Assembly (NCBI RefSeq): GCF_016714285.1
Contig: NZ_JADJNN010000008.1
Location: 324,669 to 388,668, forward strand
DNA: 64,000 bases
Direction: 5' to 3'
Origin: Nannocystis sp.
GTDB lineage: Bacteria > Myxococcota_A > Polyangia > Nannocystales > Nannocystaceae
Below the pieces are notes generated by a model that ran no database searches, had not been told where the DNA came from, and was given only the letters and a program-made list of their open reading frames with translations. Made by a program: the position numbers and the translations under genes. Below are positions 12,731 through 42,204 of this stretch, piece by piece (the stretch's first letter is position 1; each line of letters begins with the position of its first letter).

Positions 12731-13138
12731 ATGACCACGCTCTCGCGTCCGCAGAAATTCACCCTGGAATCGCTCTACCTCCCTATCCCGGCGAGCTTGG
12801 GCGAGGACGGCCCCCCCGCGCACGGCGTGAAGCTCGGGCTCACCGGTCGCGCTGGGAGCTCCAATCTGGTCGGCACCCTGCAGCTCGACCCCAACGCCTG
12901 CACCCTCAATTCGTTCGGGGACCGCGAGATGTGCACCAAGATCGCGATTCGCTCGACGTCGGTGACCGCCACCCTGATGCCCGTCCCCGATCCCAAGGGG
13001 CTCCACCGCAGCTACTACATGCTGCAGGGCGAGCACCTCGCGCCGTTGACGGCGCTGATCGTGGATCCGCAGCACCAGCGGCACTATCTCAAGTGCAACG
13101 ATACGATCGTCGCGCTGTTCCCCGACGACGGCGCCTGA
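12731..13138 (+). CDS. Small hypothetical protein (135 aa) immediately upstream of the S8 peptidase
   Basis: Coherent codon usage and a non-low-complexity sequence. 12 bp separate it from the peptidase gene. Confidence 0.5.
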   Translation: MTTLSRPQKFTLESLYLPIPASLGEDGPPAHGVKLGLTGRAGSSNLVGTLQLDPNACTLNSFGDREMCTKIAIRSTSVTATLMPVPDPKGLHRSYYMLQGEHLAPLTALIVDPQHQRHYLKCNDTIVALFPDDGA

Positions 13139-13150
13139 GATACGGACATC

Positions 13151-18215: not shown

Positions 18216-18441
18216 CGCGGCACTTTGCCACGCCCCGGCGGCGAATCGTCATTCAATCGTTCGTGGCGCGGGACGTGGATTCCTGCGCGCGCGGCGGACG
18301 CAATGCTTGCACTTGTGATACACATCGATATGGGAGTGGAACGACGGGCCAGCGATGGCCTGGCGCGGTCGGCCCCGCGACGATCGTCGGCCCGCGCCGG
18401 GCTGATGCCCGGCCACGCATGCGTGATACCCTGCCGCGACG

Positions 18442-22700: not shown

Positions 22701-24240
22701 CGCGGTGCACGATCGTCAGGGCGGCAGGCTTCGCGGGCGCCTGCGTCGGGTCGCAGGGGTCGCGGGGTCCGAGGACGGCGCGCCACACGAGGCCGCGGCG
22801 GAGGCCGGCGAGCAGGCCGGCGGTGGTCTGGCCGCGCAGGCGCCGGATGCTGGCGAAGCGACCGCGGCCCTCGAGCTCGAGGGCCCAGGTCCACAGGCTG
22901 CGGGTCGCGCTGTTCAGCTCATCGCAGCCGCTCGCCGAACGCACCAGCTCGAGCTGGGTCGCCTCCTCGGCGGCATCCCGGGAGATGAGCACGCTGAGCA
23001 TGGCGATCGGCACGGCGATCACCGACAGGACGATCGCGGCGATCACCGCGCGGACCCGGCGGCGTTGCTTGCGGCGGGCGGCTGCGGCGACGCGGCCGAG
23101 CTCCTCCTCGACGAAGGGGCGCAGCACGCGGGTGAAGGCGTCGTGGAACAGCTCGACGACCTCGCCGCGGTCGCGGCGGTGGACGATGCGCTCGCGGTCG
23201 AGGTGGTCGAGCACTGCGTCGATGCGTGGGCGCGGGAGCCCCAGCTGGGACGCGAGGACGTCGACCGGGTAGGCCATGCGGACGCCGATCCGCGGCGCGA
23301 GCAGGCCGAGCACGCGGGCGGTGTCCTGGCGGAGCTGGCCGGTGAGCTCGCGGGTCGCGTCCGTCACGAAGGTGGCGACGATGCCGTCGCAGCCGCCGAG
23401 CTGGCGGTACAGCGCGAGGGTCAAGCGCGGCGCGGCGTCGCCGGCGACGGCGGCCCACAGGCGCCGGAGGACGATCTGCAGGAAGGGTAGGGAGATGCCC
23501 GCGGGCTGGCTCGTGTCGGTCTTCAGCCCGCTGGCGACCACGTCGCCGCGCAGGTCGAGCAGCAGCGCCTCGACCAGCCCTGGCTCGACCTCGCCGTGGA
23601 ATTCAGGCAGGCGCGCGGGCTCGCGGATCGCCTCCTCGGCCTGCTTGCCGGCCAGCGGCCCCAGGCGGTAGACGGCCTGCGGGATCGTCAGGAAGTGCGG
23701 GCGCAGGGCCTCGAGGCTGGCGAGGTACTCCTCGCGCAGCGACAGCACCACGCGCACCGCTGTGTCGTTGCGCAGCAGCGACCCGAGCGCCGCGCCGAGA
23801 GCGTCGAGCTCGGCGGCGTGGCGGATGAACACCTGCTCGAACTGGTCGAGCACGAGGACCAGGCCCTGGGCGTGCGAGGCGGCGGCGAGGCGGGCGGCGG
23901 CGGGCAGGTCGCTCGCGCCGGCGCCGAGGCTCGCGACCAGCGCGGCCTGGATGCTCGCCAGCGGCGATCCGGCCCAGCTGTCGACGTAGACCGGGAGGGC
24001 CCCGAGCTCGCGCAGCGCCGGGACGATGAGGGTCCGCAGCAGCGAGCTCTTGCCGGCGCCGGAGGGCGCGACCATCACCGCCAGCGAGGTGGCGAGGATC
24101 GTGTTGCGGACCAGCTTGCCCTCGGGCTGGCGGCCGAAGAACAGGGCCCGCTCCGACTCGTCGTAGGGGCGCAGCCCGACGTAGGGGCCGGCCGGGCGCG
24201 GGCCGAGCGGGCGCGGGCCGAGCGGGCGCGGGTCGGTCAC
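19735..24240 (-). CDS. STAND-class P-loop NTPase with a TM segment and long alpha-helical C-terminal region
   Basis: GTG start at 24240, with GGAG 6 nt upstream, overlaps the TGA of the upstream gene (GTGA). N-terminus has PRPLG repeats, then PYVGLRPYDESERALFFGR. Walker A: MVAPSGAGKSSLLRTLIVPAL. Walker B: LVLVLDQFEQVF. TM helix RAVIAAIVLSVIAVPIAMLSVLI. Confidence 0.8.
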   Translation of the reverse strand: MTDPRPLGPRPLGPRPAGPYVGLRPYDESERALFFGRQPEGKLVRNTILATSLAVMVAPSGAGKSSLLRTLIVPALRELGALPVYVDSWAGSPLASIQAALVASLGAGASDLPAAARLAAASHAQGLVLVLDQFEQVFIRHAAELDALGAALGSLLRNDTAVRVVLSLREEYLASLEALRPHFLTIPQAVYRLGPLAGKQAEEAIREPARLPEFHGEVEPGLVEALLLDLRGDVVASGLKTDTSQPAGISLPFLQIVLRRLWAAVAGDAAPRLTLALYRQLGGCDGIVATFVTDATRELTGQLRQDTARVLGLLAPRIGVRMAYPVDVLASQLGLPRPRIDAVLDHLDRERIVHRRDRGEVVELFHDAFTRVLRPFVEEELGRVAAAARRKQRRRVRAVIAAIVLSVIAVPIAMLSVLISRDAAEEATQLELVRSASGCDELNSATRSLWTWALELEGRGRFASIRRLRGQTTAGLLAGLRRGLVWRAVLGPRDPCDPTQAPAKPAALTIVHRGDDSDSPAIVALWRNLAGKHWREHHLPVPLAVLARRDASLADHELKLEIDGGALSVRLTLPSGPPRPGLAVFHDPAAEAPATADPDRERRPAAEAPATADPDRERPSLPWKLLRESGFLTGSLTGFLTGDDPTASHPGRAAAWSAPLWRLLARQHPELATYPASAAAIATTAFARVAADPSLYVTPDFVEAMLARVDRRAQCQASEAALRWSPSCRDDAACRPHVRELLAGRLREAFILAARDGLRGERWPAAVDWLLALEVPPVDRGRQRDFLASELAARLAEDAPTPTRPDPDLPANDHCDDPPPPGHDEIVDMLFAGIPTPRPFGDLSASELLAAIHHPPGLERWLAQPVVARDLPALVRALWWRSEQPERARDQLPWLLHSLPFWHVYCAAANDPQACTATGLLDLLRADPAGPRPTVSWTDQGIDALVHDDPDEATAIFLAAAKRGDLRPDFIANYAAPDTVDQLLRARLDHVCFGDPRRFRGEHPERLDDLSRHFSRTMLDRLADHIPPDGFDRVCKDLLDLGREPATILGTLADPGRDARTGLMLGTNLLRAALESNQFPGYRAQIRGLLNGERGPASAGAGRSAAAAAPDDLSIGAWDTAYDRALDICNEFDSRSCTQLMLDLAMDRLPDAALMALADEVARQRIGGPPELLETLLKNLLKPGAFETFTRTCALPLAQLKDKAPSASRLALSWALQQPRDVRRSCLRALRTQLKAPGLAGISASQRRVLTADAERMLGCYDEAGAALGPDSDRTSYDLTLRAFLALRVDLIEAARIADGPLRVVRGQGPGAELHPAFAHLLLGDGFEGHARDFIAGTATEDRHYVAMMLWWRLVQAGRRGEAEKLLSALLPPEQNKGDLDCDKPRSLADAELQKEGDLTPWREHLLCSLRNDQRIVFTRQDYAKPLYSQSPQTYEFFQCEALFFDALRRSANKHDGYEQTLCHVIEAGCYYSYESVLAEQLLRQSTHVCPALQVDRCNAK

Positions 24241-26318
24241 GCGGGTCTCCGGGCCCGCAGGGCGCGGACGAGGGTCGGGAGTTCGATCGAGCTCATGTCG
24301 ACGTGGAACTGCTCCCACAGCCGCTGCTCGAGCGTCGAGGCGGGCTCGCGCACGGCGAGCGCACCGCTGCGGCGATCGTCGTCGCGGGCCGCTTCGCGCT
24401 GGAGTCGCGGCTCGCGGCGGAAGAACGCGTGCCCGATCAGGCGATAGTGCCAGATGTCGAGGTTGAAGCCGAGGAACAGCAGGCGCCGGGTGTACAGCTG
24501 CAGGGCGAAGGCGCTGGGGATCGTCGTGTGCTGGTGCTCGAGCTGGGCGAGGAAGGTGATGTGGTCGCTCTCGGTGATCACGACGGTGTCGAGCTCGCGG
24601 TCGCGGACGGCGGGGTGCTCGGCGAGGAAGGGCGAGCCGAGCAGCTTGTAGATGACGCAGTCGTCGTCGTCGATCTCCGCCTCGAGCTCGGAGGTCAGGC
24701 GGACGGCGGCCGCGGTCGCGGGGTCCCGGCCGCGGGGGTGATGCGCGCTGCGCAGGAGCAGCGCCTTGCCGATGTCATCGCCGGCCGAGCGGAGGATGTG
24801 GCTGACGAGCACGTAGGGGCGCCCGGCCTCGTCGAGGGCGCGCTCGAGCTCGAGGTCGTGGGTCGTGGAGATCACGAACCATGGCGGCTTCATGTCGAGG
24901 ATCATGTCGAACGCCGCCGGCGGCGCGAGCTGGGCCGGTCCGCCGAGGATCTCGCGCAGCTCGACGAGGAAGGCCGGGCGGCCGCGCTCGAACTGCAGCG
25001 CCTCCGCGGCGGCGGCCATCGTCGGGTTGTGGCCGGCGCCGAGGCCGGCGCGCTCGCTGAGCTGCTTGACGATGGCGTAGTAGTTGCGCTGCGAACCGTC
25101 CCAGATGCCGTCGCCGAGGAAGGGGATGAGCTCGCCGCGCCAGAACACCGGGGCGATGCGGTCGACGAACTGTTGCTGCAGCGGGTGGAGCTTGATGTCG
25201 GCGAGCACGCTGCCGCTGCGGCGGCGCAGCTGCATCTCGCTCGGCTTGGTGTTGAAGACCAGCGGCAGGACGCCCTCGCCGAGGGCGACCTGGATCGCCT
25301 GCAGGACCTCCTCGACGGTGCTGATGCCGTCGTGGTTGCTGTCGGCGGCGTCGTTGCTGAGCGCGTGCAGCAGCAGCCCGGTCAGGGGGCTGTGCGCGTC
25401 CTGCCAGGCCTCGGGGCGCGCCGCCGGGCCCGCGCTGGTGGCCAGCAGGACCTTGCCCGGGCCGGGCCCGAGCTGGGTGCGCAGCTGGGCCTCGACCTCG
25501 GCCTTCGCGGTGTCGCCGTAGCAGGCGTCGAGGACGATGAAGAGGTGACCGACCTGGGTCTGGTCGAGGAACATCTGCTTGATCAGCGCGAGCGAGACGC
25601 CGGCCGGGAGCTCGCTGTTGCGGGCGGGGAGGAAGGGGCCGAAGCCGGTGAAGCTGACGTGGCCGGCGAAGTACAGCAGGACGAAGTCGTCGTGGCTGGC
25701 CGGCGCGAGCAGGTCGGCGATCGCCCGCATCAGCTGGCGGCCGTCGGGGTCGACGAGGCTGACGACCTCGAACTCGCACTCGGGCCACGTGAGCGCCTCG
25801 GCGAGGCGCAGGACGTTGCGCTCCGCGGCCGGCAGCGCCGGCGCGTCCGCGCCGCGGGACAGCGCGACCAGCAGGGCACGCCGGCCGCTGCGCTTCGGCG
25901 CGGACGCGGTGGTCGCGGGCGGGGCGGCGAGCCAGGCCCGGATGTCCGCGACGAGCTTGCGAAAGGCCGGGGCGCCGCGGTCACCGATCCAGTCGATGAG
26001 GTCGATGGTCTGGATCTGGTCGTAGGGCTTGGGCGGCGCGACGGGGTCGAGGCGGACCGGGACCAGGACGCCGCGTCGTCGGCCCTCGTCGGCCTCGGAG
26101 CGGATCCAGGTCCGCTGCTCGTCGATCGCGTGCCGCGACCACAGGACGACCACGCAGGCGGCCCGCTCGACCCGCGCCTGCAGCTCGCCGGCGTAGGCCG
26201 TGCCGGCGCGGAGGTCGGCGTCCCACCACACGTCGAGGCCCTCGTCGCGCAGGGCGGTGACGAGGGCGAGGGCGCGCTCGCGATCCTCGCTCGCGTGGCT
26301 GACAAAGACCTGGGACAT
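24237..26318 (-). CDS. Tri-domain effector protein: TIR + caspase-like (C14) + SIR2-like
   Basis: TIR: QVFVSHASEDRERALALVTALRDEGLDVWWD ... VVVLWSRHAIDEQRTWIRSEADEG (S.W...E glutamate present). Caspase dyad contexts LLYFAGHVSF and HLFIVLDACYGD. SIR2-like: GELIPFLGDGIW, VVITESDHITF, RRLLFLGFNLDIWHYRL. Confidence 0.8.
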   Translation of the reverse strand: MSQVFVSHASEDRERALALVTALRDEGLDVWWDADLRAGTAYAGELQARVERAACVVVLWSRHAIDEQRTWIRSEADEGRRRGVLVPVRLDPVAPPKPYDQIQTIDLIDWIGDRGAPAFRKLVADIRAWLAAPPATTASAPKRSGRRALLVALSRGADAPALPAAERNVLRLAEALTWPECEFEVVSLVDPDGRQLMRAIADLLAPASHDDFVLLYFAGHVSFTGFGPFLPARNSELPAGVSLALIKQMFLDQTQVGHLFIVLDACYGDTAKAEVEAQLRTQLGPGPGKVLLATSAGPAARPEAWQDAHSPLTGLLLHALSNDAADSNHDGISTVEEVLQAIQVALGEGVLPLVFNTKPSEMQLRRRSGSVLADIKLHPLQQQFVDRIAPVFWRGELIPFLGDGIWDGSQRNYYAIVKQLSERAGLGAGHNPTMAAAAEALQFERGRPAFLVELREILGGPAQLAPPAAFDMILDMKPPWFVISTTHDLELERALDEAGRPYVLVSHILRSAGDDIGKALLLRSAHHPRGRDPATAAAVRLTSELEAEIDDDDCVIYKLLGSPFLAEHPAVRDRELDTVVITESDHITFLAQLEHQHTTIPSAFALQLYTRRLLFLGFNLDIWHYRLIGHAFFRREPRLQREAARDDDRRSGALAVREPASTLEQRLWEQFHVDMSSIELPTLVRALRARRPA

Positions 26319-26462
26319 GATCGCAGCGGAGCGCGCAGCGGCTTGTGTACCACCATCGGCCGCTGTGTTGCAGGTGATCGAGGCGGGCTTTCTCGTCGAC
26401 GTCGTCGATATCGGGGCCGCGCGAGCGGCCGCGTCCGCGCTGCCCGGCGGCGCCCGGCGGTC

Positions 26463-28608: not shown

Positions 28609-30651
28609 GTGCGTGAATGTGCGGAGCTGGAGATCGGGCTGTCGCGGCGCGACGCGGGGTCGTACGCGGTCGAGCTGCGCTTCACGCAGCCGGGCAGCGA
28701 CGCCGATGTGCGGGTCGGCGAGGGCGAGGGGCTGGCCTGCGCGCTGGATCTGGCGGGCCTCAAGGAGCTGCTGGCGCAGCCGGAGGCGTACGGGCGGGCG
28801 CTCGGGGCGGGCCTGTTCGCGGCGCCGAAGGTGGCCGAGACGCTGGCCCGCGCCCAGGCGGCGGCCGCCAGTCAGGACCTGCCGCTGCGCGTGCGCCTGG
28901 CGATCGCGGTCGACGTGGCCGAGCTGCACGGGCTGCGCTGGGAGCTGCTGCGGACGCCGGACGGGACCCTGGTCAGCGCGGGCGAGCGGATCTTGTTCTC
29001 GCGTTACCTTGCGAGCGTCGACTGGCAGACGGTCAAGCTGCGGCCGCAGGCGTCGCTGCGGGCGCTGATCGTGATCGCTGCGCCGGCCGGGTTGGCGGCG
29101 TACGGGCTGGCGGAGCTCGACGTCGCGGCCGAGCTGGCGCGCGCGCAGGCGGTGCTGGCGGGGATCGAGACGGTGGCGCTGGCGGGGCCGGGTCAGGCGA
29201 CCGCGACGGCGATCATCGACGCGCTGCGCAGCGGCTTCGACGTGCTGTACGTGGTGGCGCACGGGTCGTGGCAGCGCGGTGAGGCGTTCGTGTGGCTCGA
29301 GGACGCGGCCGGCGCGGTGGCCCGGATCGCCGGGGCCACGCTGATCGCCCGGGTCGCCGAGCTGCAGCAGCGGCCGCGGCTGTGCGTGCTGGCCTCGTGC
29401 GAGAGCGCGGGCGCGGGCGCGGGGGAGGACCCCGCGGTGCTGGCCGCGCTCGGGCCGGGGCTGGCGCGCGCCGGGGTGGCGGCGGTGGTGGCGATGCAGG
29501 GCCCGCTGAGCGTGGCGACGGCGGCGGTGTTGCTGCCGCGGCTGTTCGCGGAGTTGTTGCAGGACGGGCAGGTCGATCGGGCGCTGGCGGTCGCTCGCGC
29601 GGCGGTCCGTGAGCGGAGCGACTGGTGGATGCCGGTGCTGTTCATGCGCCTGCGCTCGGGACGGATCTGGTACACGCCGGGCTTCGGCGGCGAGGGCGGG
29701 CAGTTCGAGAAGTGGCCGGCGCTGCTCCGCAGCATCGCCCAGGGGCGCTGTACGCCGGTGCTCGGGCCGGCCCTCGGCGACGCGCTGCACGGGTCGTCGC
29801 GCGAGCTGGCCCACCGCTGGGCCGACGAGTACGGCTACCCGATGGCGCCGGGCGGGCGCGAGGATCTGCCGCACGTGGCGCAATACCTGGCGGTCCACCA
29901 GGACGAGCGGTTTCCGATGGACAAGCTCGAGGGGTCGCTGCGCGACGCGGTGGTGTCACGATTCCCGCAGGTGCTCACGGGGGGCGCGGGCGAGGGCACG
30001 CTCGACGAGGTGCTGGCGCGGGTGGCCGACTGGCGGCTGGCGCAGGGGAGCTTCGATCCGTACCAGGTGCTCGCGCGGCTGCCGTGTCCGCTGTATGTGA
30101 CGACGGCGAGCGACGGGCTGCTGGCGCATCACCTGCGTCTGGCGGGTCGTTCACCGCAGGTCGCGCTGTGCCCGTGGAACCCCGACGTGGTGGCCGACGC
30201 GGCCGTCGCCGAGGCGGCGAGCGTGGAGCGGCCCGCGATATATCACCTGTTCGGGCATATCTCGGCCCCGAACTCGCTGGTGATCACGGAGAACGATATC
30301 TTCGACTTCTTGATCAGCGTGAGCGCGGATCGCGAGGTGATCCCGCCGCGGGTGCGGGCGGCGCTGGTCGACTCGTCGCTGCTGATCCTCGGGTTTCCGA
30401 TCGACGATTGGAAGTTTCGCGTGTTCTTTCGCAGCCTGATGAACCGGGCCGGCGGGGGCCGGCGCAAGCGCTACACGCACGTGGCGGCGCAGATCGATCC
30501 GGAGGAGGCGCAGACGATCGACCCGGCGCGCACGCGGCGTTACCTCGAGGAGTACTTCGAGGGCTCGGACATCACGATCTATTGGGGCAGCGCGGAGGAC
30601 TTCCTGCGCGAGCTCGCCGGGCGGCTGCCGGGGGGGAGGCCGGGCGCTTGA
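28609..30651 (+). CDS. CHAT (caspase-like) + SIR2-like two-domain effector protein
   Basis: CHAT His/Cys contexts LYVVAHGSWQRGEAFVWLED and RLCVLASCESAGAG. SIR2-like: CTPVLGPALGDALHG, PLYVTTASDGLL, VITENDIFDFL, SSLLILGFPIDDWKFRVFF. Confidence 0.8.
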   Translation: MRECAELEIGLSRRDAGSYAVELRFTQPGSDADVRVGEGEGLACALDLAGLKELLAQPEAYGRALGAGLFAAPKVAETLARAQAAAASQDLPLRVRLAIAVDVAELHGLRWELLRTPDGTLVSAGERILFSRYLASVDWQTVKLRPQASLRALIVIAAPAGLAAYGLAELDVAAELARAQAVLAGIETVALAGPGQATATAIIDALRSGFDVLYVVAHGSWQRGEAFVWLEDAAGAVARIAGATLIARVAELQQRPRLCVLASCESAGAGAGEDPAVLAALGPGLARAGVAAVVAMQGPLSVATAAVLLPRLFAELLQDGQVDRALAVARAAVRERSDWWMPVLFMRLRSGRIWYTPGFGGEGGQFEKWPALLRSIAQGRCTPVLGPALGDALHGSSRELAHRWADEYGYPMAPGGREDLPHVAQYLAVHQDERFPMDKLEGSLRDAVVSRFPQVLTGGAGEGTLDEVLARVADWRLAQGSFDPYQVLARLPCPLYVTTASDGLLAHHLRLAGRSPQVALCPWNPDVVADAAVAEAASVERPAIYHLFGHISAPNSLVITENDIFDFLISVSADREVIPPRVRAALVDSSLLILGFPIDDWKFRVFFRSLMNRAGGGRRKRYTHVAAQIDPEEAQTIDPARTRRYLEEYFEGSDITIYWGSAEDFLRELAGRLPGGRPGA

Positions 30652-33600
30652 CCGCGACGTCGCCAGCAGGCTCGCCGGCAAACCCGTACGTCGGTCCGCG
30701 GGCGCTGCGGAGCGGGGAGGCGCTGTTCGGCCGCGACCGCGAGGTGGCGCGGCTGTTCGACCTGATGCTGGCGGAGCGCATCGTGCTGCTGTATTCGCCG
30801 TCGGGCGCGGGCAAGAGCTCGCTGCTGCAGGCGGGGCTGGTCCCGCGACTGCACGCCGAGGGCTTCACGGTCCGGCCGGTCGTGCGGGTCGGGATGGCGC
30901 CGCCGAGCGACGCGCCGGCGGGGGTCAATCGTTATGTGCTGAGCACCTTGATGAGCCTGGAGGAGGATGTCCCGAGGGACAGGCAGCTCGACCTCGCCGC
31001 GTTGGCAGGGTGCACGCTCGCGGCGTACCTCGCGCGGGGGTCCGAGGCGGACGCCGACGAGGTGCTGTTGATCGATCAATTCGAGGAGCTGCTGACGGTC
31101 GACCCGACGGCGGTGGCGGCGAAGCGGGTGTTCTTCGCCCAGCTCGGCGAGGCGCTGCGGGACACCCGGTTGTGGGTGGTGGTGGCGATGCGCGAGGACT
31201 TCATCGCCGGGCTCGACCCGTACCGGGCGGCGGTGCCGAAGAAGCTGCACACGACCTTTCGCCTCGAGCTGCTCGGGCGCGAGGCGGCGCTGCTGGCCGT
31301 GCGGGGGCCGGCTGCAGCGGCAGGGGTGACCTTCGAGCTCGCGGCGGCGGAGCGGCTGGTCGACGACCTGCGACAGGTGCGGGTGCCGATCGTCGACGGC
31401 GGCGTCGAGCTGCGACCGGGGCCGCACGTCGAGCCGGTGCAACTGCAGGTGGTTTGTCGCGGGCTGTGGGCGGCGTTGCCGGCGGACGATCGCAGCATCG
31501 GGCTCGCCGACCTGGCCGAGCTCGGCGACGTCGACCAGGCGCTGGCCCGCTACTACGACGCGCAGGTCCTGGCGGCCGCGCGCGCGAGCGGGGCGCCCGA
31601 GCGGGCCCTGCGGCTGTGGCTCGAGCGCGAGCTGGTGACGGTCCAGGGGCTGCGCACGCAGGTGCTGCGCACGCCGGGGGCGACGCAGGGGCTCGGCGAC
31701 GCGGCCCTGACGGCGCTGATCGACTCGCTCGTGCTGCGCAGCGAGACGCGCCGCGGGATGATGTGGGTCGAGCTGGCGCACGACCGCATCGTCGCGCCGC
31801 TGCTGGCGAGCAACGCGGCGTGGATGGCGAAGAACCTCGCGCCGACCTCGCGGCAGGCGGCGCTGTGGGACAGCCGCGGGCGGCCGGAGTCGCTGCTGCT
31901 GGCGACGGCGGCGGAGGCCGAGGCGCTGCTCGCGGCGGCGGGGGAGTGGACGGCGACCGAGCAGCTGTTCCTCGAGCAGAGCCGGATCGTCCGCCGGCGC
32001 GAGGCGGCGACGCGGCGATATCAGCGGACGATCCGCGTGCTCGCGGCGGTGGTCGGGCTGCTGGTCGTGGCCGGGCTGTCGGTCGGGATCGTGCTGATCC
32101 GGCGGGCCGCGGCGGCGGCGCTGGAGAAGTCGGAGCAGGAGGCGAGGGCCAGCGCCGAGGCGGCCGCGCGCGCGCAGGCCGAGCAGCGCGCGGCGGAGCA
32201 GGCGTTGATCCGTCAGCTCATCGCCCAGGTCGCGCTGTACCGCGAGCAGCAGCCCGAGCTCGCGGCGCTGCTGGCCGTCGCGGCCTCGACGCGGCTCGCG
32301 GACCCGTGGCAGCGCAAGGCGGCGCTGCTCAACGCCGCGGTGACGCAGCCGCAGCTGCGGTCGCGGCTGGCCTCAAGGCCAGGTGACGATGGGGCGGGCC
32401 CGGCGGCGTTCGTGCAGATCGCGGCGGCGGGCGGGCAGCTGTACGCGCTCGATCGCCGCGGGCAGGTGCTGCGCCTCGGGCTCGAGGATCGCGGGCAGGC
32501 CTCGCTGCTGCCGGCGGGGACGCGGGCCGGGGACTTCGCGGCGGACCCGGTGCGCGAGCGCGTGGCGATCGTCGCGGGTCAGGCGATTGAACTGTGGGAG
32601 GTCGGGGCGACGACGCCGACGGCGAGCTTCGTGCTGCCCGCGGATCCGGCGGGGCTGGGCGACGCGCCGCGGCCGGACGCGCGGGTGTGGCTCGAGGGGC
32701 TCGGCTTCTCGGCGGACGGTCGCACGCTCGCGGTCGTGCGCCGTCGCAGCGACGGGCCGAGCCGCGGCTTCGTGATCGACGTCGAGGCGCGATCGATCCG
32801 GCCGCTCACGGGCAAGTTGCCGGTGTCGGCGCTGGCACTGGCGCCCGACGGCGCGCTGGCGGTCGCGGGGCTGCTCGCGGTGGACGGGTCGATCGTCGTG
32901 TTCTCGGGGCCGACGCTGGCGCGCGGTGTGCTGACGCCGGGTCACGCGGATGTCGGGCGGGTGTACCTCGCCCGCTTCGATCCGCATCGGCCGCGGCTGC
33001 TGACCGCGGGCGAGGGCGGGGCGGCGACGCTGTGGACGGTCGAGGGCGGGACGCTGAGCGCACCGCGGCCGCTCCCGCTGGGCGGCGGCAACGTCCGGGA
33101 CGCGCTGTTCCTCGCGGACGGCAAGCTGGTGATCGCCACGGAGACGCGGATCTCGGTGTGGAGCGGCGAGCCAGAGACGCCGTGGGGGAGCCCGATCACG
33201 CCGCCGACGCGGGCGACGGCCACGCTCGCGGCGGTCGGCGCGGACGGGCTGCAAGTCGCGGTGGTGTCGCTGGCCGACGCGCCGATCCACGTGTTCGACC
33301 CGCGGCGGCTGGCGCCGTGGCAGCTGGCGGCGCCGCGGGTGCCGATGACCGAGGGCGGCGACGCGGCGTTTCAAGGCGTGGCCCCGCGGGTGGCGATCGA
33401 CCGGGCAGGTGCGCGGGTCGCCGCGACGAGCTTCGACCGGCGCGAGGGCGGCCGGGTGACCGTGCTCGACGTGGCCAGCGGGAGCTCCGTCGTCACGGCG
33501 GCGGGGCAGGGCGAGCAGTTCATGGCCCTGGCCTTCGCCGACGCCGGCAAGCTGGTGGCGATCGATGCGGCCGGGGCGGTGACGGCGTGGACGGTCGCGG

Positions 33601-34424
33601 GCGGCGCGGCGCAGACGCTGTGGAAGCTGCCGCAGCGGCCGCTGCGGGTCGCGCTGGCGGTCGATCCAGCGGGCCTCGCGGTGGCGGCGGGCGTGGCGTT
33701 CGGGGCGACGAGCGTGACGCTGATGGCAGAGCAAGCGGTGGGGACGGAGCCCTCGCCGCGCACGCGCACGATCGCGGCCGGGGTGCCGATCACGGCGCTG
33801 GCCCTCGATCACGCGGCGGAGCGCCTCGCGGTGGCGACCTGCAGCGAGCGGATCGGCCTGGCGACGTGCGCACGCGGCGAGGTCCGGGTGTACGCGGTCG
33901 CCAGCGGGGCCGAGGTCGCGGGTCCGCTGGCGGTCGATGGCGTGCACGGGCTGGTGTTCGCGGCCGACGGTCGACGCCTCGCCGGGCTCGTGCCCGGCGC
34001 GCCGCCGGTGGTGTGGGAGCTCGCCGACGGCGAGCGCCTCGCGTTGACGGTGCGCCGCTCGCTCGGCGAGTTCATCGCGGCCGACTTCTCCGCGGACGGC
34101 GACGTGCTGCTCGCCAGCGCCGAGGCCGACAACGCAGCGGTGGCGCTGACGCTGTGGGATCTGCGCTCCGGCGAGGAGCTGGCGCCGCCGCTGGTCGCCC
34201 ACAACCCCGCGGTCGGCAGCTTCGATCCGGGGGCGCAGCGGTCCGTGCTGCTGGCGCCGCACAGCGGGCTGGTGGTCAGCAGCAGCTTCGACGGGGTGCT
34301 GCTGTGGGATATCGCCGACGCGACGCTGACGAGCCGCGCGTGCACGCTGGCGGGGCGCGAGCTGACGAGCGCGGAGTGGACGAGGTTCCTCGGCCGCGGC
34401 GAGCCGCAGCAGGCGCAATGCGGC

Positions 34425-34710
<286 letters not shown>

Positions 34711-34789
34711 GCGGCAGGCGGGCACGGCTCCGCACGGGCGCTCGGGCTCGGCACGCGCGCGCTGAAGCGCTACCATGCGCGCAGCGAGA

Positions 34790-36566
34790 CCGCTTGCGAC
34801 AGCCGCTTGACCTCGACACCGAACACCACCGATCTCCCGATCTGCGGGCCGCTCTGGCGAGCCTGGCCGATCAGGGAGAGACCGAGCGCGGGGCCGTGTT
34901 CACGCGGCCTGAGGTGGTCGCCTGCCTCCTCGATCTCGCGGGGTACACCGTCGACCAGCCGCTGCATACCTGGCGGATCCTCGAGCCGTCGTTCGGCGCG
35001 GGTGACTTCTTGCTCGCGGCGGTCGAGCGCCTGCTGACGTCGTTCGCGGCGTTCGGGGGCCTGCCGAGCGCGGCGCTCCAGCTGCGCGAGGCGGTGCGGG
35101 CGGTCGAGGTGCACCCGGCGTCGTTCGCCGCGACGCGCGAGGCGCTCCACTGGCGCCTGGTCACGTGGGGCGCGAGCCGACGCGATGCGGGGGCGTTGTG
35201 TGACAGCTGGCTGCTGCGCGACGACTTCCTGCTGGCGCAGCTGACTGGGCGCTTTGATGTCGTGGTTGGCAACCCGCCCTACGTGCGACAGGAGCGGATC
35301 GCGGGGCCCTTGCTCGCGGAGTACCGTCGGCGCTACGCGACGATCTACGACCGGGCGGACCTGTATGTGCCGTTCTTCGAGCGCGGGCTGCAGCTGCTGC
35401 GGGACGGCGGGCGGCTCGCGTTCATCTGCGCCAACCGCTGGCTCAAGAACAAGTACGGCGGGCCGCTACGCGGCATGATCGCCCGCGACTTCCACCTCTC
35501 GCACTACATCGATATGGCGGGCACCGATGCGTTCCAGTCGGAGGTCATCGCGTACCCGGCGATCACGGTGATCCGCCGCGGCGAGGGCAGCGTGACCCGG
35601 CTCGCGCGGAGGCCAGACGTCACGACGGAGCTGAGCGAGCTGACGCGCCTGCTGAGCGCACCCGGTCCCGTGCTCGACGAGCGGGTCGAGGAGGTGGAGC
35701 ACGCGGTCCGCGGCAGCGAGCCGTGGCTGCTCGACGCCGCCGATCAGCTTCGCGTGATCCGCCGGCTCGAGCGCGACTTCCCGGAGGTCGAGGAGGCCGA
35801 CTGCAAGGTGGGGATCGGCGTGGCGACCGGCGCCGATCGGGTGTTCATCGGCGACCACGCGGCGCTGCCCGTGGAGGACTCGCGCAAGCTGCCGCTGCTG
35901 ATGGCGCGTGACCTTCAGGACGGCGCGATCGTCTGGGGCGGCAAGGGCATCGTCAACCCGTTCGAGGCGGACGGCAGCCTGGCCTCGCTCGACCGCTATC
36001 CGGCCTTCGGCGCGTACATCCGCGAGCACGCGGACGTGCTTTGCAAGCGCCACGTCGCCCGGAAGAGCCCGAGCTGGTACCGCACGATCGACCGCGTGTA
36101 CGCCGAGCTCACCGGCACGCCGAAGCTGCTCATCCCGGACATCAAGGGCGAGCCGATGGTCGTGTTCGACGAGGGCAAGTTCTACCCGCACCACAACCTG
36201 TACTACGTGACCTCGTCGACCTGGGACATGACGGCGCTGGCGACGGTGCTGCGCTCGTCGATCGCGGTGCTGTTTGTGTCGACGTACTGCGTGAAGATGG
36301 CGGGCGGCTTCCTGCGCTTCCAGGCGCAGTACCTCCGACGGATCCGCGTCCCGCGGTGGGAGGCCGTCCCGGAGGCGCAGCGCGCCGCCTTGATCGCCGC
36401 GGCGCCGACCGACCGCGCGGCGATCGATCACGCCGCGTTCGCGGCCTACGGGCTCACGGCCGCGGAGGCCCGGACGGCGCAGCGGGCGGCGAGCGCGGCG
36501 CTGGTGCAGGGGCGGGCCTCGGTTGATCCCGCGCTGACGCCGGCGAGCACCCTGGCTATCTCTTGA
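34790..36566 (+). CDS. N6-adenine DNA methyltransferase, Eco57I/gamma-class-like, with a ~350-aa C-terminal (target-recognition?) region
   Basis: Motif [16 protein letters not shown]. Motif [14 protein letters not shown]-terminal [18 protein letters not shown]. The start is uncertain: TTG ~34790, or ATG 34632 if the low-complexity leader is real. Confidence 0.75.
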
Positions 36567-36764: not shown

Positions 36765-38000
36765 GTGCGCATGCGGACCCTCATTCTCAGCGATCTGCAC
36801 CTCGGCTGTGGCCCATGCCCCGGGATCTTCGCGGGCTCACAGGCCCTCGGCGGGCTCCTCTCGGAGCTCGGGGCCGGCCCGCTGCGGGTCGTTCTCAACG
36901 GCGACACCTTCGACTACTGGGCGCAGGTCGATCATCGCGACGGCGCGGCCAGGGTCACACAGGCGCTCCTGGAAGACCCGGTCAACGCCGAACTACTGAC
37001 GCGCCTCGGCGAGGTGGTCCGGGCCGGAGGGGCGCTGGTCGTGCGTGGCGGGGAGCATGATCGTGACCTGGTCGCTGCGAGTGCGCGGGCGCGGGTGCTC
37101 GCCGCGCTCAAGCTCGTCGAGGCCCAATCGGCGCATGTCACCTGGCATCGGCTTCTGACGCCGAGCGTGCTCGACGTCGGCGCTGCGCGGCTGATCGTCG
37201 CCCGCGGCGGCCGCGGTCACGAGGCCGCACGCCGGCTCGCCGAACTGCTGCTCAATCCGCTGCGTCGTCAGTACGGGGTCGGGTTCGCGGACCTGCTGCG
37301 CCCGGACTACGTCGCCTCGGTCCTCGCGGCGCTCGCGGTCAACCCGACCGCGGCGAAACTCGTGCTGCGGCAGCTCGCGGACGTCGGCTGGCACCGCCTG
37401 CGGAGCGACTGTGAGCGGGCGCTCCGCCTCGCGGAGACCCTCGCTGCCGCGGGGCTGTCCGCGCGTGAGCGGGAGGTCTTCGGCCTGGCCCTCGACCCGG
37501 AGGTCCCGCTCGGCGACGCGTTCGATACCCACGGAGCCCTCGAGCTGGCGCGCCTCAAGCTCTTTCGTCACAGCCTCGGGCGGCGCCCAGAGACGGATGC
37601 CGACGGCCTGCGTTCGATAGCCGGGGCGGAGTGGCACGCGCTCCGTGCCCTGGCGCGCCGACGACATGCGAGCGCCGCCGTGATCGGCCACAGCCACATC
37701 GCGGGGTGGCGCAGCGCGGACGGCCTGACCGTCGCGGACACGGGCACGTGGACCTGGCGCGTCGAGACCCCCGAGGCGAGCGCGAGCGTGGCCTCGTGGC
37801 GCGAGACCATGGCGTCCTGGCAGGACGTCGCCCGCGTCGGCCTGTCGCGCGCGCATGCCGTGGCCGCACGGGCGCGGTTCACCGCGGCGTGGATCGAGCC
37901 GCGACCCGCAGGGCAGGGGGCCCATATGGCGCTCGTCGAGTGGCGCCCCGGCCATGGGCTGGTCGTGCTGCGCGAGCAGGAGCTCGCCCGGGCGCACTAG
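36765..38000 (+). CDS. Calcineurin-like metallophosphoesterase (paralog A)
   Basis: LILSDLHLG, VVLNGDTFD, VIGHSHIAGW motifs. 411 aa. Confidence 0.7.
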   Translation: MRMRTLILSDLHLGCGPCPGIFAGSQALGGLLSELGAGPLRVVLNGDTFDYWAQVDHRDGAARVTQALLEDPVNAELLTRLGEVVRAGGALVVRGGEHDRDLVAASARARVLAALKLVEAQSAHVTWHRLLTPSVLDVGAARLIVARGGRGHEAARRLAELLLNPLRRQYGVGFADLLRPDYVASVLAALAVNPTAAKLVLRQLADVGWHRLRSDCERALRLAETLAAAGLSAREREVFGLALDPEVPLGDAFDTHGALELARLKLFRHSLGRRPETDADGLRSIAGAEWHALRALARRRHASAAVIGHSHIAGWRSADGLTVADTGTWTWRVETPEASASVASWRETMASWQDVARVGLSRAHAVAARARFTAAWIEPRPAGQGAHMALVEWRPGHGLVVLREQELARAH

Positions 38001-38049: not shown

Positions 38050-39942
38050 ATGACGACCTCCCGAGCCTCTGATCTCAACCTCCTCATGGTCCACGCCGAC
38101 GATCACGCGCCCGTGCTGGCCGACGGGCTCGCCGAATCGACGGCGTGCGGGCAATCGATCCCCACACAATCGGACGAGGCGAGTCATTTTTGGGACGAGG
38201 GCGGCGACCCCAATGATATCGAGGTCCAGCGCTGGGGCGTGATCGCCCCGCAGGGCCCCGAGGGTGACCGTCTGCTCGCGCTGATCAAGCCGCTGATGGC
38301 GCATCGCCAGGCGCAGCAGCAGGGCGAGCCCATCAAGGTGTATCGCGCGCCGCCGCAGATGACCCAGGACGAGGCGATGCGCTGGAAGAAGCGGGAGTTC
38401 GATACCGGCGCCGATCTCAACATTGAGGTCCCCCGCTATCAACTGATCCTGGGCGACCTCGATCAGGTCCCGCTCGCGCTGCAGCAGGTCCAGGCCAGTG
38501 ATGGTTATGTCGGCCGCCTCGCATTCGACAAGGAGGAGGACTACGCCGCCTATGTCGACAAGGTGCTGCGCTGGGAGCGGAGCGCCGCGGGCCGCGACAA
38601 GCCCGACTCGCTGTTCTTCACCGTCCACGACGGCACCGCCGCCACCGCCGTCGGCCACCGCGCCCTGGTCGCCCCCGGCGTCGAGGTGGTGCGCAGGCGC
38701 CAGCGCTCCGGGCAGTATCCGGCGAAGGATATCGTCGAGTTCGGGGACCCCGTGACGCCCTCGCCCGACGAGCTGCTCGCGCGCGCGGAGGGTCAGGAGG
38801 CCAGCGTGCTGTTCACGCTCAGCCACGGCGAGGGCGCGCCCCGGGGCGGCTGGAGCTCGCCGGAGGAGCAGCGCCGCCGGCAGGGCGCGATGAGCTTCGG
38901 CCGCGAGGGCCGGATCTGCGGCGATGATCTGCGCAGCCGCCCGTTCATGCCCGGCGGCGTGTGGTTCATGCTGGCCTGTTATGGCGCGGGCACGCCGAAC
39001 AGCAGCGCATACAAGCATTGGCTGGCGGCCCTCGCCGCGGCCGGACAATTTCGTGGCAAGCCCGAGGCGGTGCTCGCGGGGCTGCCAGGACCGCGGGACC
39101 GGCCGTTCACGTCCGCGCTCGCGCAGGCGGTGCTCGCCAACCCGAACGGCCCGCTCGGGTTCATGAGCCACATCGACCTCGCGTGGACCTACAGCTTCCA
39201 GGAGCTCGACTCGGGCGCGACCAACCGGCCGGCGCGCTACATGGCGATCACCCGCTCGATCCTCAAGCGGGACCGCGTCGGCGTGGCGATGCGCGAGCTG
39301 CTGCGCTTCTTCGACCAGACGAACGTCGAGCTGACGAGCCTGTACGATCAGGAGGCCCGCCAGAGATCCGCGGGTGAGCCCGTGCAGGTCGACGCGGCCC
39401 GCCAGGGCCACCTGTGGATGCTGCGCCAGGACCTCGCGGCGTACGTGCTCCTCGGCGACCCCGCCGTGCGCCTGCCGGACGGCGGCTCCGCGGGCGGCCC
39501 GACGTCGCCGGCAGCGACGGCGGCTCCGATCACCGTCACGACGGCCGCGGCTGCCGAGCCCGCGTCGCCAGCAGCGACACCGGCTCCGATCACTGTCACG
39601 ACGGCCCCGGTTGCCGAGCCCGCGTCGCCCGCACCGGCACCGGCCGCGATCGTCGCGGCGCCCGGACCGGCCGCAGTCGCCGCGGCGAGCAGCGATTCGT
39701 TCGCGATCCCTGCGCCCGCGGCATCGGCTGCGAGACCGGCTGTGCCGGTCGCCGACACCCCGCGCGACGCTGCTGTCGACGCCTCGCAGGTCGTGCTCGA
39801 GGAGGCCGTCGCCCAGTGCATCCTCGCCGACCTCGCGGTGACGAGCGCCGCGGCCCGCGTCGGCCTGTCCCGCGACGCGCTCACCCAGCTCGTCGCCCGC
39901 TACCGCGAGATCGGCCGACGCGCGCTCGTCGGCGGAGAGTGA
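38050..39942 (+). CDS. Caspase-like (clan CD) cysteine peptidase + Pro/Ala-rich linker + C-terminal helix-turn-helix domain
   Basis: His/Cys dyad contexts VLFTLSHGEGAPRGGW and GGVWFMLACYGAGTPNS. C-terminal VVLEEAVAQCILADLAVTSAAARVGLSRDALTQLVARYREIGRRALVGG is a homeodomain-like HTH. A paralog lies at 56025-57999. Confidence 0.65.
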   Translation: MTTSRASDLNLLMVHADDHAPVLADGLAESTACGQSIPTQSDEASHFWDEGGDPNDIEVQRWGVIAPQGPEGDRLLALIKPLMAHRQAQQQGEPIKVYRAPPQMTQDEAMRWKKREFDTGADLNIEVPRYQLILGDLDQVPLALQQVQASDGYVGRLAFDKEEDYAAYVDKVLRWERSAAGRDKPDSLFFTVHDGTAATAVGHRALVAPGVEVVRRRQRSGQYPAKDIVEFGDPVTPSPDELLARAEGQEASVLFTLSHGEGAPRGGWSSPEEQRRRQGAMSFGREGRICGDDLRSRPFMPGGVWFMLACYGAGTPNSSAYKHWLAALAAAGQFRGKPEAVLAGLPGPRDRPFTSALAQAVLANPNGPLGFMSHIDLAWTYSFQELDSGATNRPARYMAITRSILKRDRVGVAMRELLRFFDQTNVELTSLYDQEARQRSAGEPVQVDAARQGHLWMLRQDLAAYVLLGDPAVRLPDGGSAGGPTSPAATAAPITVTTAAAAEPASPAATPAPITVTTAPVAEPASPAPAPAAIVAAPGPAAVAAASSDSFAIPAPAASAARPAVPVADTPRDAAVDASQVVLEEAVAQCILADLAVTSAAARVGLSRDALTQLVARYREIGRRALVGGE

Positions 39943-39949
39943 GGTCAGC

Positions 39950-40837
39950 ATGGGTATCGGAGACCGCTTCGGAAAATTCCTCAAGGACGAGCTGGACTGC
40001 CGCTCGGTGTGGCCACCGGTGCTCACGCCGATGCAGCTCGGCGACTACGGCGTCAGCGATGGAGCGAGCTTCCAGAAGCTCGGCAACATCACGGACTTCG
40101 GGCTCACGCTGGAGATCGAGGTCGGGCAACCGTCGAGCCTGAACCTCGTGTCCAGCGGCGTGAAGCAGACGCGCCTCGCCGCAGGCGCCGCCGTCCCCGC
40201 GTTCCAGGGGCTCGGCAACGTCGCCGCGAAGCTGGGCATCGAGTTCTCGCGCAGCGAGAGCTTCGTGCTCAAGTGTCGCCGCGTCGAGCGCACGCAGATC
40301 CGCAACCTCGGCGCCCTGGCGCTGCGCCTGTCGCGGGCCAGGACCGCGGACGGTCAGGCCTGGAAGCACCTCGCGTGGAAGATCGTGTGGCAGCTCTACA
40401 CCGGCCGCGACGTGGTGTTCCTCGCCACCCGCAGCGCCGGCACGCGGGTCGAGTTCAGCGGCAGCGCCGACGCGCTGCACCAGCTCGAGATGGGCTCGCT
40501 CAGCGCCGGGATCGGCGTACAGACCAGCCACAGCCTCGGCTGCGAGGTGCTCGGGCAGAGCGGGCCGGTCGGCTACGGCCTCGCACGCGTCAAGGTCATC
40601 GGCGCTGGCGTGAAGTTCTTCTCCTCCGATCTCGAGGAGGAGGAGGCCGACGCCGTCGAGCACCTGAGCGCCGAAGAACCACCCCTCGAGTCGCTCGCGG
40701 ACGAGGACGATCCGGCCGTCGACGCCGGGCACCGGAGCCCCGAAGAACCACCCCTCGAGTCGCTCGCGGACGAGGACGAGCCGGCCGCCGACGCCGTCAC
40801 CGCCGATCCCGCGGCGCCAACCAAGGAGCCATCATGA
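39950..40837 (+). CDS. Hypothetical beta-rich protein with acidic duplicated C-terminal tail (candidate pore-forming/gasdermin-like substrate of the adjacent protease; speculative)
   Basis: GAGG RBS upstream. 295 aa. First 230 aa are Gly/Ser/Val/Leu-rich with alternating hydrophobic residues. The C-terminal 65 aa are acidic and contain a 22-aa direct repeat, EEPPLESLADEDDPAVDAGHRSP / EEPPLESLADEDEPAADAVTADP. The stop overlaps the ATG of the next gene (ATGA). Confidence 0.6.
   Translation: MGIGDRFGKFLKDELDCRSVWPPVLTPMQLGDYGVSDGASFQKLGNITDFGLTLEIEVGQPSSLNLVSSGVKQTRLAAGAAVPAFQGLGNVAAKLGIEFSRSESFVLKCRRVERTQIRNLGALALRLSRARTADGQAWKHLAWKIVWQLYTGRDVVFLATRSAGTRVEFSGSADALHQLEMGSLSAGIGVQTSHSLGCEVLGQSGPVGYGLARVKVIGAGVKFFSSDLEEEEADAVEHLSAEEPPLESLADEDDPAVDAGHRSPEEPPLESLADEDEPAADAVTADPAAPTKEPS
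40676..40805. repeat. ~66-bp in-frame tandem duplication inside the 3' end of gene 39950-40837
   Basis: gaagaaccacccctcgagtcgctcgcggacgaggacga...ccggagcccc repeated twice with 4 substitutions. Confidence 0.75.
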
Positions 40838-42204
40838 TCACGATCGTCCTCAGCGACATTCACCTCGGCAACGGCGCGGGCTACGACATCTTCGCCGGCG
40901 ACGCCGTGTTGCCCCCGGTGCTCGCCGCCGCGGCCCGGCAGCGCGCGCGCGTCATCCTCAACGGCGACACCTTCGACTTCCTCATGAACGAGGACCCGCT
41001 CGAGCTCGACGCGGCGCGGGCCACGGCCCAGGCGCGGGCGATCGTCGCCAATCCCTCGACCGCGGCGGTGATGGCCGGCCTCGGCGAGGTGCTCGCGGCC
41101 GGAGGCGAGGTCGTGCTGCGCCTCGGCAACCACGACGCCGAGGTCGCGCTCGCCGAGGTGCAGGCGGTCCTGCGTGACGCGCTGCAGCAGCCGCCCGAGG
41201 TCGCCGCGCGCCTGGCCTTCGAGCGCGGCGACAACCCCTCGCTGCTCACGGTCGGCGGGGCCCGGATCTTGCTCGCGCACGGCGAACACAACGACCCGTG
41301 GAATCGCCTCGACTACAAGAACCTCCCGAGCGCCGGCGACGGCCCCAAGTTTCGTTACCCGCCCGGCTCGCGCCTGGTCAAGACGCTGCTCAACCCGCTC
41401 AAGCGCGGCTTCGGCATGCGCTTCGCCGATCTGCTCAAGCCCGACTTCCAGGGCGCCGTGCTCACGGCCCTGGCCGTCGATCCGACCTCGATGCGCCTGA
41501 TCTTCCAGGGCAACACGGCGAGGTTGTTGTGGCAGCTGTTTCGTAAGAGCGGGGAGGGCATGACCTTCGCCGACGGTGAGGAGGGCGAGGGCAACCTCGG
41601 CATCGCCGACGCCCTCGACCAGGCCGGGCTCTCCGCGGACGAGCGCGCCGCCATCGAGTCGGCCGTCGACCCCGACGGCGCCGCGACCTTCGCCGACGAG
41701 GACGTGCTCGACGGGGCCCGCTTCAAGCTCGCCCGCGCCGGCCTCAAGCTGTACGCCGCGGCCCAGCGGGCCCTGACTGGCACCACCGGCGACCGCTACT
41801 TCGACCTCCGCCCCGACGACGGCGAATGGACCGAGGCCCGCCGTCTCGCGGACAAGTTCGCGGCCGACGCGGTCGTGCTCGGCCACACCCACTCGGCCCG
41901 CTGGAAGCAGGAGCCCGGCCTCGCGTTCGTCAACACGGGCACGTGGATCCACCTCATGCGCCTGCCCGCCGCCAGCGACGACGACGCGGCCTGGCTCGGC
42001 TTCCTCGACACGATCCGCCGCAACCCGTCGCTCGACGCGGCGCGCGGCCCCGCGGCCCCGCTGGTCACGCGCTTCACTGGCCTCGTGATCCACGAAGACC
42101 CCGCGGGCGGGGCGCTGCTGCAGCTGGTCGAGTGGCAGGCCGGCGCGGCACCGGCGGTGCTCGCCTCGGGCGCGGTCGCGGCGCGCAGCACCGCGGCTCG
42201 ATAG
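40834..42204 (+). CDS. Calcineurin-like metallophosphoesterase (paralog B)
   Basis: MITIVLSDIHLG, VILNGDTFDFL, LLAHGEHND, VVLGHTHSARW. ATGA overlap with the upstream gene. By my count the ATG is at 40834; the ORF track lists 40837. Confidence 0.7.
   Translation: MITIVLSDIHLGNGAGYDIFAGDAVLPPVLAAAARQRARVILNGDTFDFLMNEDPLELDAARATAQARAIVANPSTAAVMAGLGEVLAAGGEVVLRLGNHDAEVALAEVQAVLRDALQQPPEVAARLAFERGDNPSLLTVGGARILLAHGEHNDPWNRLDYKNLPSAGDGPKFRYPPGSRLVKTLLNPLKRGFGMRFADLLKPDFQGAVLTALAVDPTSMRLIFQGNTARLLWQLFRKSGEGMTFADGEEGEGNLGIADALDQAGLSADERAAIESAVDPDGAATFADEDVLDGARFKLARAGLKLYAAAQRALTGTTGDRYFDLRPDDGEWTEARRLADKFAADAVVLGHTHSARWKQEPGLAFVNTGTWIHLMRLPAASDDDAAWLGFLDTIRRNPSLDAARGPAAPLVTRFTGLVIHEDPAGGALLQLVEWQAGAAPAVLASGAVAARSTAAR

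Follow-up and report, generated by a model that had tools for sequence, protein, structure and literature searches.

A divergent gasdermin-like gene beside a C25-like protease gene in Nannocystis: probably a variant of the protease-triggered suicide pore

Does a gene that lies directly behind a putative protease gene, and whose product matches no Pfam family, encode a pore-forming executioner of cell death? This question is raised by the open reading frame (ORF) at 39950-40837 (plus strand) in a stretch of 64,000 nucleotides from Nannocystis sp. (contig NZ_JADJNN010000008.1; the whole stretch is called the window here). Cell-death modules made up of a gasdermin and a protease connect the immunity of bacteria with pyroptosis in animals. 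Only few bacterial gasdermins (bGSDMs) have been characterised, with a palmitoylated N-terminal cysteine as a common feature and C14, CHAT, trypsin or subtilase proteases as partners. Our analysis leads us to propose that the ORF encodes a highly divergent bacterial gasdermin, that the protease encoded next to it is its likely activator and that the role of the pair is regulated cell suicide, a reading to which we assign a probability of roughly 70%. It is supported by the fold of the protein, its remote homology to bGSDMs, its pairing with a protease and the architecture of its tail. The gene product is thus probably a variant form of suicide pore that is set off by a protease.

The ORF starts with ATG, encodes 295 amino acids and shows a codon-position GC content of 0.71/0.48/0.91, which is typical for a window of 73% GC and hence marks it as a real gene. 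The sequence GGAG is found 13-16 nt 5' of the start codon, and the stop codon forms an ATGA overlap (40834-40837) with the start codon of the metallophosphoesterase gene that follows. Between the TGA stop of the protease gene (39940-39942) and the ATG at 39950 we measured a gap of 7 nt, which replaces the 16 bp given in an earlier note on this DNA that had been made from the letters alone. Promoter and terminator scans of this GC-rich region were uninformative.

Predicted fold and remote homology to bacterial gasdermins

Using an alignment of 88 family sequences, AlphaFold2 (AF2) produced a model of the window protein with a predicted local distance difference test score (pLDDT) of 87.1 and a predicted TM-score (pTM) of 0.78. 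The model displays the fold of a gasdermin N-terminal domain, that is, a twisted central antiparallel β-sheet with connecting helices, and its conserved core comprises residues 1-227 (39950-40630), where pLDDT is mostly above 90 and which holds the residues that are near-invariant family-wide. A Foldseek search of the PDB with this model returned gasdermins for all of the top 15 matches, with E-values from 2.6e-5 (rank 1) to 8e-2 (rank 15). The earlier note had suspected a gasdermin-like protein and had named AlphaFold with Foldseek as the way to check it; the outcome bears out that suspicion. The TM-scores are low (0.3-0.48), which would fit a match of the central sheet and the wide differences in conformation from one gasdermin state to another. 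The structural match covers about 150 residues. The model is somewhat closer to pore or active conformations than to inactive crystal forms, which may be a quirk of AF2. A Foldseek search against a viral structure library, used as negative control, yielded nothing at E<=1e-3. A MACPF/CDC pore-forming toxin was considered as well and rejected on fold, the best structural similarity being to something other than MACPF/CDC.

Structural similarity is accompanied by sequence similarity at the level of the family. When the profile of the 88 relatives was compared with PDB sequences, the bGSDM of Bradyrhizobium (7N50) came out on top (E 2.3e-3), and 7N51 was also listed. A broader profile of 67 sequences that includes the window protein (A6) matched 7N50 with E=1.6e-7 over 141 profile positions in register, followed by 7N51 (2.6e-3) and 8SL0 (4.9e-3); these three were the sole PDB matches under E=0.1, all others having E>=0.17. 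Furthermore, the PADLOC bGSDM model PDLC02986 matched 6 of 128 family representatives (E 8e-5 to 1.9e-6). Because of these profile and PADLOC matches, we regard the family as a remote sequence relative of the bGSDMs and not merely as a structural look-alike. For the window protein itself the link is transitive, via the family profile, and its sole match in PADLOC is a weak one to PDC-M09A (E 1.5e-3). A search of an index of 5.8 billion proteins for canonical bGSDMs, with a fragment of 7N50 as query, gave no matches.

One may ask whether the resemblance to gasdermins is an artefact of modelling or of profile building, in which case the gene would encode an unrelated β-rich protein, e.g. another toxin or a structural protein. 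The window sequence alone indeed matches nothing, the TM-scores are as low as stated above, and a first AF2 run on a shallow alignment of 12 sequences ended with an unusable model (pLDDT 36); yet an artefact accounts neither for the empty result of the viral control nor for the pairing with a protease, which agrees with the gasdermin paradigm, and we consider it highly improbable.

The family behind these profiles is large. Searching the protein index with the window protein retrieved 11 close relatives with 50-90% BLASTP identity and E-values down to 1e-168, all built on the conserved core of ~227 residues and followed by acidic tails that vary. An exhaustive HMMER search with the alignment of close relatives against 1.84 billion cluster representatives (50% identity clustering) then gave 993 representatives at E<=1e-3 and 266 at E<=1e-10, mostly of about 235-265 amino acids and typically about 240; the window protein belongs to this family at E<=1e-15. 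Few further sequences came from the 5.8-billion-protein index when it was searched with the broad alignment. Across 88 members, W21, P23, G31, D32, G34, G45, S68, F99, W138, G202 and G205 are near-invariant, and Pfam recognises none of these members. In the window protein, residues 1-228 are dominated by 29 Gly, 27 Leu, 21 Ser, 21 Ala and 20 Val; its N-terminus reads MGIGDR, and a cysteine at position 17 is conserved in the closest subfamily only. Every family member named in its source is called "hypothetical protein", e.g. in metagenome-assembled genomes (MAGs) of Myxococcota and Myxococcales; the family has its members in Myxococcota, and gene families of Bacteroidota type occur in some of the contexts.

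Some members depart from the common layout. The nearest relative in a genome, and the only genome locus retrieved by the close alignment (L012, 229-2376, Nannocystis sp. MAG JBGAUO010000215.1; protein P0012), is 64% identical, and its gasdermin-like domain runs on in one ORF into a peptidoglycan-binding domain plus about 470 additional residues, an extension that could represent either a genuine long C-terminal domain or the result of read-through or fusion. The distant members P0126, P0148, P0141 and P0057 carry Lipase_3, TIR or ParA-like NTPase domains in the same polypeptide, a sign that the gasdermin-like module may have been combined with other effector or signalling domains. On three wastewater contigs (L008-L010), a truncated protein of 172 amino acids (P0011) is 73% identical over the central core, has a divergent N-terminus and no tail, and lies near no annotated protease; it is probably a decayed copy.

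The acidic tail and the adjacent protease

The core is followed by a Pro/Ala-rich acidic tail, residues 229-295 (40634-40834), which is mostly predicted to be disordered and whose 67 amino acids include 15 Glu and 9 Asp, at a net charge of -22. The division into a β-textured core of ~230 and an acidic tail of ~65 amino acids, as the earlier note had drawn it, thus comes close to what we find (227 and 67). Tails beyond the core are a feature of the family: their median length is 28 amino acids and their median charge -7, the charge is negative in 81 of 88 members, and 47 of the 88 tails carry an acidic-acidic-hydrophobic C-terminal motif. In the window protein, the transition from core to tail consists of D227 and residues 228-239 (LEEEEADAVEHL; 40628-40666), for which AF2 predicts a helix (228-234) and a short strand (236-239). 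The block 231-240 reaches a pLDDT of 88, whereas the remaining tail stays at or below 64. Residues 228-239, which are predicted to be ordered, are also conserved in close homologues, and position 227 is D or E, with the motif [AWF]V[ED]xL kept, in 10/10 full-length close homologues. We thus regard this junction as a candidate cleavage loop joined to a candidate autoinhibitory anchor.

The same tail contains a tandem repeat of 69 bp (23 amino acids) at 40633-40796, which Tandem Repeats Finder (TRF) resolves into 2.4 copies with 87% matches. The earlier note had described a perfect duplication of 22 amino acids; this does not hold, as the longest exact amino-acid repeat is 12 residues long (EEPPLESLADED, starting at residues 242 and 265) and the longest exact DNA repeat in the ORF measures 40 nt. 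The closest homologue (P0001, 274 amino acids, 97% identical over aligned columns) has one repeat unit fewer, for which reason we take the repeat to be incidental and not a functional signature; judged from the sequences, it represents a recent strain-level expansion by slippage. Tandem repeats are also seen in the linker of the protease gene (39497-39687; 60 bp in 2.6 copies and 27 bp in 2 copies), and hence both genes of the pair carry recent slippage expansions.

The protease gene (38050-39942, plus strand) encodes 630 amino acids, whose C-terminal part consists of a Pro/Ala/Thr linker and a helix-turn-helix (HTH) domain. Its product resembles the gingipain/C25-like cysteine proteases of clan CD. 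Pfam Peptidase_C25 is matched with 24.3 bits (cut-off 23) over residues 146-181 only, while the orthologue from a metagenomic locus (L001) and a paralogue within the window score 19.0 and 22.2 bits, respectively, at model positions 288-374 (residues about 357-475); the three matches are colinear but borderline. Between the two C25-matching stretches lie the motifs VLFTLSHGEG, with the putative catalytic His259 (38824-38826), and VWFMLACYGAG, with the putative catalytic Cys310 (38977-38979). Both residues are invariant in three orthologues, and the paralogue reads SLSHGLG and CIACFAAG at these places. Each thus stands behind a hydrophobic strand, in an H-G and an A-C motif, an arrangement typical of clan CD, which takes in caspases, gingipains and legumains. 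The clan-CD resemblance given by the C25 match and the His/Cys motifs sustains the view of the earlier note that the upstream gene encodes a caspase-like protease, and judged by sequence the protein is probably a clan-CD protease. The C-terminal domain (39796-39930) is matched by HTH_28 at residues 587-627 and is 68% identical to the corresponding domain of the L001 protease. Over 588 amino acids the two proteases are 75% identical in Smith-Waterman and MAFFT alignments; BLASTP reported only a C-terminal high-scoring segment pair of 44 amino acids, which we treat as an artefact of the tool.

The neighbourhoods of family members, about a dozen contexts, were inspected one by one by hand. The pair of protease and gasdermin-like gene recurs in five metagenomic loci (L001-L004 and L011) and probably also in a sixth (L005). 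Relative to the window, the protease orthologues of L001 and L011 show an identity of 74-75%, as compared with about 57% for the gasdermin-like protein. In L001 the genes follow each other in the order TPR, CHAT, nSTAND1-WD40, protease, gasdermin-like, DUF2589, contiguous from the CHAT to the gasdermin-like gene, so that the nSTAND1-WD40 architecture stands directly upstream of the pair. Distant members have other proteases around them: CHAT and TIR-trypsin genes immediately downstream (L017), S8, CHAT and C14 genes nearby (L021) or an adjoining CHAT gene (L022). The arrangement of a protease and a β-rich partner, which the earlier note had likened to bGSDM pairs, is thus conserved across loci.

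The surrounding island and other possible activators

In the window, the pair is embedded in a dense defence or cell-death island. An nSTAND1 NTPase with WD40 repeats (30702-34475, plus strand; Pfam nSTAND1 1.1e-36, WD40-type propellers) is likely the sensor of the island, and upstream of it a CHAT protease is fused to a SIR2-like domain (28609-30651, plus strand; Pfam CHAT 7.1e-25, SIR2_2 1.3e-16). Both are about 32% identical to their counterparts in L001, where the gene in the place of CHAT-SIR2 has a CHAT domain as well and a sub-threshold SIR2_2 match (E 4.6e-3). Further members of the island are a TIR, Peptidase_C14 and SIR2-like protein (24237-26462, minus strand) and a SLOG (LSDAT_prok) protein with DUF4231/SLATT (18427-19719, plus strand). 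Since the pair lies inside an island of STAND NTPase-WD40 and CHAT-SIR2 genes, its role is probably regulated cell suicide, be it abortive infection or a death programme that serves some other conflict or development.

Between the nSTAND1 gene and the pair we find the C-terminal end of a metallo-β-lactamase-fold protein (34453-34710, 85 amino acids), an Eco57I-like N6-adenine methylase with TaqI_C domain (34632-36566) and a metallophosphoesterase. In L001, 61 nt and no gene separate STAND and protease genes, which lets the lactamase fragment and the methylase (34453-36566) look like an insertion into the module. The pair is flanked by two metallophosphoesterases that are 40% identical to each other, one upstream (36765-38000, plus strand; Pfam Metallophos_2, weak) and one whose start overlaps the gasdermin-like stop (40834-42204, plus strand; Pfam Metallophos and Metallophos_2). 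Metallophosphoesterases are listed among protease-associated effectors (PMC12642450), and the two in the window may hence be further substrates. Other loci with the pair have no such flanks, but a DUF2589 gene downstream instead, as seen in L001, L005 and L011 (4212-4931). In L001 and L005, two uncharacterised genes for proteins of about 310 and 199 amino acids follow it, the three genes taking up 10822-13143 and 1448-3736, respectively, and the L011 contig ends within DUF2589. Neither the DUF2589 gene nor the two genes after it had a tblastn match in the window.

A second, paralogous module occupies 55172-63153 on the minus strand. Here an OmpA-family gene (61282-63153), a CHAT-domain gene (59250-61253; recognised by Pfam CHAT only) whose full length aligns with the CHAT gene of L001 at 48% identity, and an ORF of 603 amino acids with a faint nSTAND1 match (58012-59823) are joined by a C25-like protease (56053-57999) that is 43% identical to the protease at 38050-39942. 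The position of the gasdermin-like gene is taken by a gene for a DUF7790 protein (55172-56056; E 1.1e-47), so that the downstream partner of this protease family seems to be exchangeable. A copy of the HTH-like domain also lies behind the paralogous protease (56028-56162, minus strand, ending in RFGLPLEEIFYWLDMYREAGRKALGG and a stop). The protease ORF ends at 56053 and is read in another frame, which points to a frameshift in the Pro-rich linker, i.e. to a pseudogene or to an assembly error in low-complexity GC-rich DNA.

With so many candidates at hand, the gasdermin-fold protein could be an executioner that answers to the CHAT-SIR2 protein (28609-30651), to the TIR-C14-SIR2 protein (24237-26462) or to a non-proteolytic trigger; the C25-like-HTH protein would then be a regulator or process other substrates, e.g. 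the flanking metallophosphoesterases. The distance of only 7 nt between the two genes speaks against such a division, as does the conservation of the exact pair across loci despite the divergence of CHAT and STAND to about 32% identity, and in L011 it is a DUF900 hydrolase gene, rather than one for CHAT or STAND, that precedes the pair on a short contig of 4.9 kb. We thus judge it unlikely, while noting that the island contains several clan-CD proteases, that the protease bears an HTH domain and its family is also paired with the non-gasdermin DUF7790, that distant members adjoin CHAT rather than C25-like proteases, and that metallophosphoesterases are among the known protease-associated effectors (PMC12642450).

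A different question is whether a gasdermin-fold protein must serve suicide in defence at all. Myxococcota of this kind undergo programmed lysis, and in a Nannocystis-like host, a multicellular myxobacterium, the protein might act in developmental autolysis or kin-directed killing, or bind lipids or membranes without forming lytic pores. Relatives fused to peptidoglycan-binding, lipase and TIR domains suggest functional diversification of this sort, and evidence of phage sensing was not obtained for the locus. The neighbourhood, however, is rich in conflict domains (nSTAND1, CHAT, SIR2, TIR, SLOG/SLATT and an Eco57I-like methylase) and the proteins nearest in structure form lytic pores, and we hold such a non-suicidal, non-defensive role to be decidedly unlikely.

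Proposed mechanism and relation to known systems

Several observations weigh against a gasdermin that is activated by its neighbour. Taken alone, the window protein had no match in Pfam, NCBIfam, the PDB sequences or the PADLOC bGSDM model. Of the 88 family members, not one carries a cysteine at residues 2-6, while a palmitoylated N-terminal cysteine (C3/C4) is conserved in most, not all, bGSDMs. The protease, whether searched alone or as a profile of three sequences, had no match among PDB sequences, and its assignment draws on borderline Pfam scores together with motifs. Its family is not dedicated to gasdermins, given that the paralogue pairs with DUF7790, and the other proteases of the island (CHAT, C14) could be the real activator. 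Four further contexts of distant members had no annotated protease. Finally, cleavage, toxicity and pores are what we infer from these comparisons.

With these points taken into account, we propose the following mechanism for tail inhibition, cleavage, pore formation and triggering. The gasdermin-fold core of ~227 amino acids would be the pore-forming part, held inactive by the C-terminal extension, of which residues ~228-239 (ending in ADAVEHL) would dock onto the core and be followed by the disordered acidic tail. In this arrangement, D227 to L239 would combine cleavage loop and docking anchor, analogous to the loop and the peptide of ~20 amino acids in bGSDMs, while the long acidic tail, being variable, would add charge. 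The co-oriented C25-like protease encoded upstream (His259/Cys310) would cut the junction, presumably around the conserved acidic D227; D or E at this position would, speculatively, suit an acid-directed clan-CD enzyme. Upon release of the tail, the core would oligomerise in the inner membrane and the cell would die. The STAND NTPase and CHAT-SIR2 genes point to a possible control of this step by an upstream sensor. One may extend this into a tentative picture of the island as a bacterial 'inflammasome', in which the STAND NTPase-WD40 sensor activates clan-CD proteases (the CHAT-SIR2 protein, the C25-like-HTH enzyme or both), possibly as a protease cascade, and these license a cysteine-less, acidic-tailed gasdermin and two metallophosphoesterases in parallel, the gasdermin clade (about 1,000 clusters) being autoinhibited by an acidic tail and not by a buried palmitoyl; as a whole, this extension appears doubtful to us.

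How does the pair compare with the bGSDM operons of Runella, Bradyrhizobium and Vitiosangium (Johnson et al. 2022; 7N50, 7N51, 7N52, 8SL0)? They have the gasdermin N-domain fold in common, a length of about 240-300 amino acids in which a short C-terminal extension takes the place of a large C-terminal domain, a gene that abuts one for a clan-CD cysteine protease (a probable one in the window), and NTPase and repeat-domain sensors in the neighbourhood. In bGSDMs the inhibitory C-terminal peptide comprises ~20 amino acids (Johnson et al., 10.1101/2021.06.07.447441), and 43 of the 50 original bGSDMs adjoin proteases, many of them fused to repeat or NACHT domains, with Peptidase C14 and CHAT named as the caspase-like partners (10.1101/2021.06.07.447441). 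In contrast, the family described here lacks the palmitoylatable N-terminal cysteine (0/88), the window protein carries a strongly acidic tail of 67 amino acids with a tandem repeat, the partner is gingipain/C25-like with an HTH domain and neither C14 nor CHAT, and the protein escapes the PADLOC bGSDM model, Pfam and NCBIfam. Among the papers covered by our literature searches, none connects gasdermins to C25-like proteases.

The logic of a STAND/NLR-like NTPase, more than one protease and a gasdermin effector is shared with the defence systems of the Lysobacter type (Wein et al., PMC10312443), which employ an NLR-like ATPase and CARD-bearing trypsin-like proteases (PMC10312443). The proteases of the window, however, are assigned to clan CD (CHAT, C25-like) and are not trypsin-like, and no CARD-like domain was detected here, the C-terminal domain of the protease scoring as HTH. 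Pepco and EACC1 (Evans et al. 2025, PMC12642450) are likewise small non-enzymatic effectors beside a serine or cysteine protease, and Pepco becomes active once its C-terminal tail, which is charged, rich in proline and unstructured, has been removed (PMC12642450). An identity with either was rejected on size and fold by comparison with their published description: Pepco is a barrel subunit of about 117 amino acids and EACC1 has a two-fragment architecture (PMC12642450), as opposed to a gasdermin-fold core of 227 amino acids. Clustering of the AlphaFold database has brought up Pfam-less families whose predicted structures resemble bacterial or animal gasdermins, some of them fused to other domains (Barrio-Hernandez et al. 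2023, PMC10584675). The present family may be among these clusters; that paper contains no protease-pairing or tail analysis for it.

In summary, the concept of the bGSDM-protease module is established; the family that we describe is a large one without annotation, and at least one of its hallmarks sets it apart mechanistically. If its role is confirmed, the census of bacterial gasdermins would grow, and the family would serve to test another mode of keeping a pore-former inactive. Moreover, a new protease family would join the gasdermin activators, in a compact form of two genes 7 nt apart that would be easy to test.

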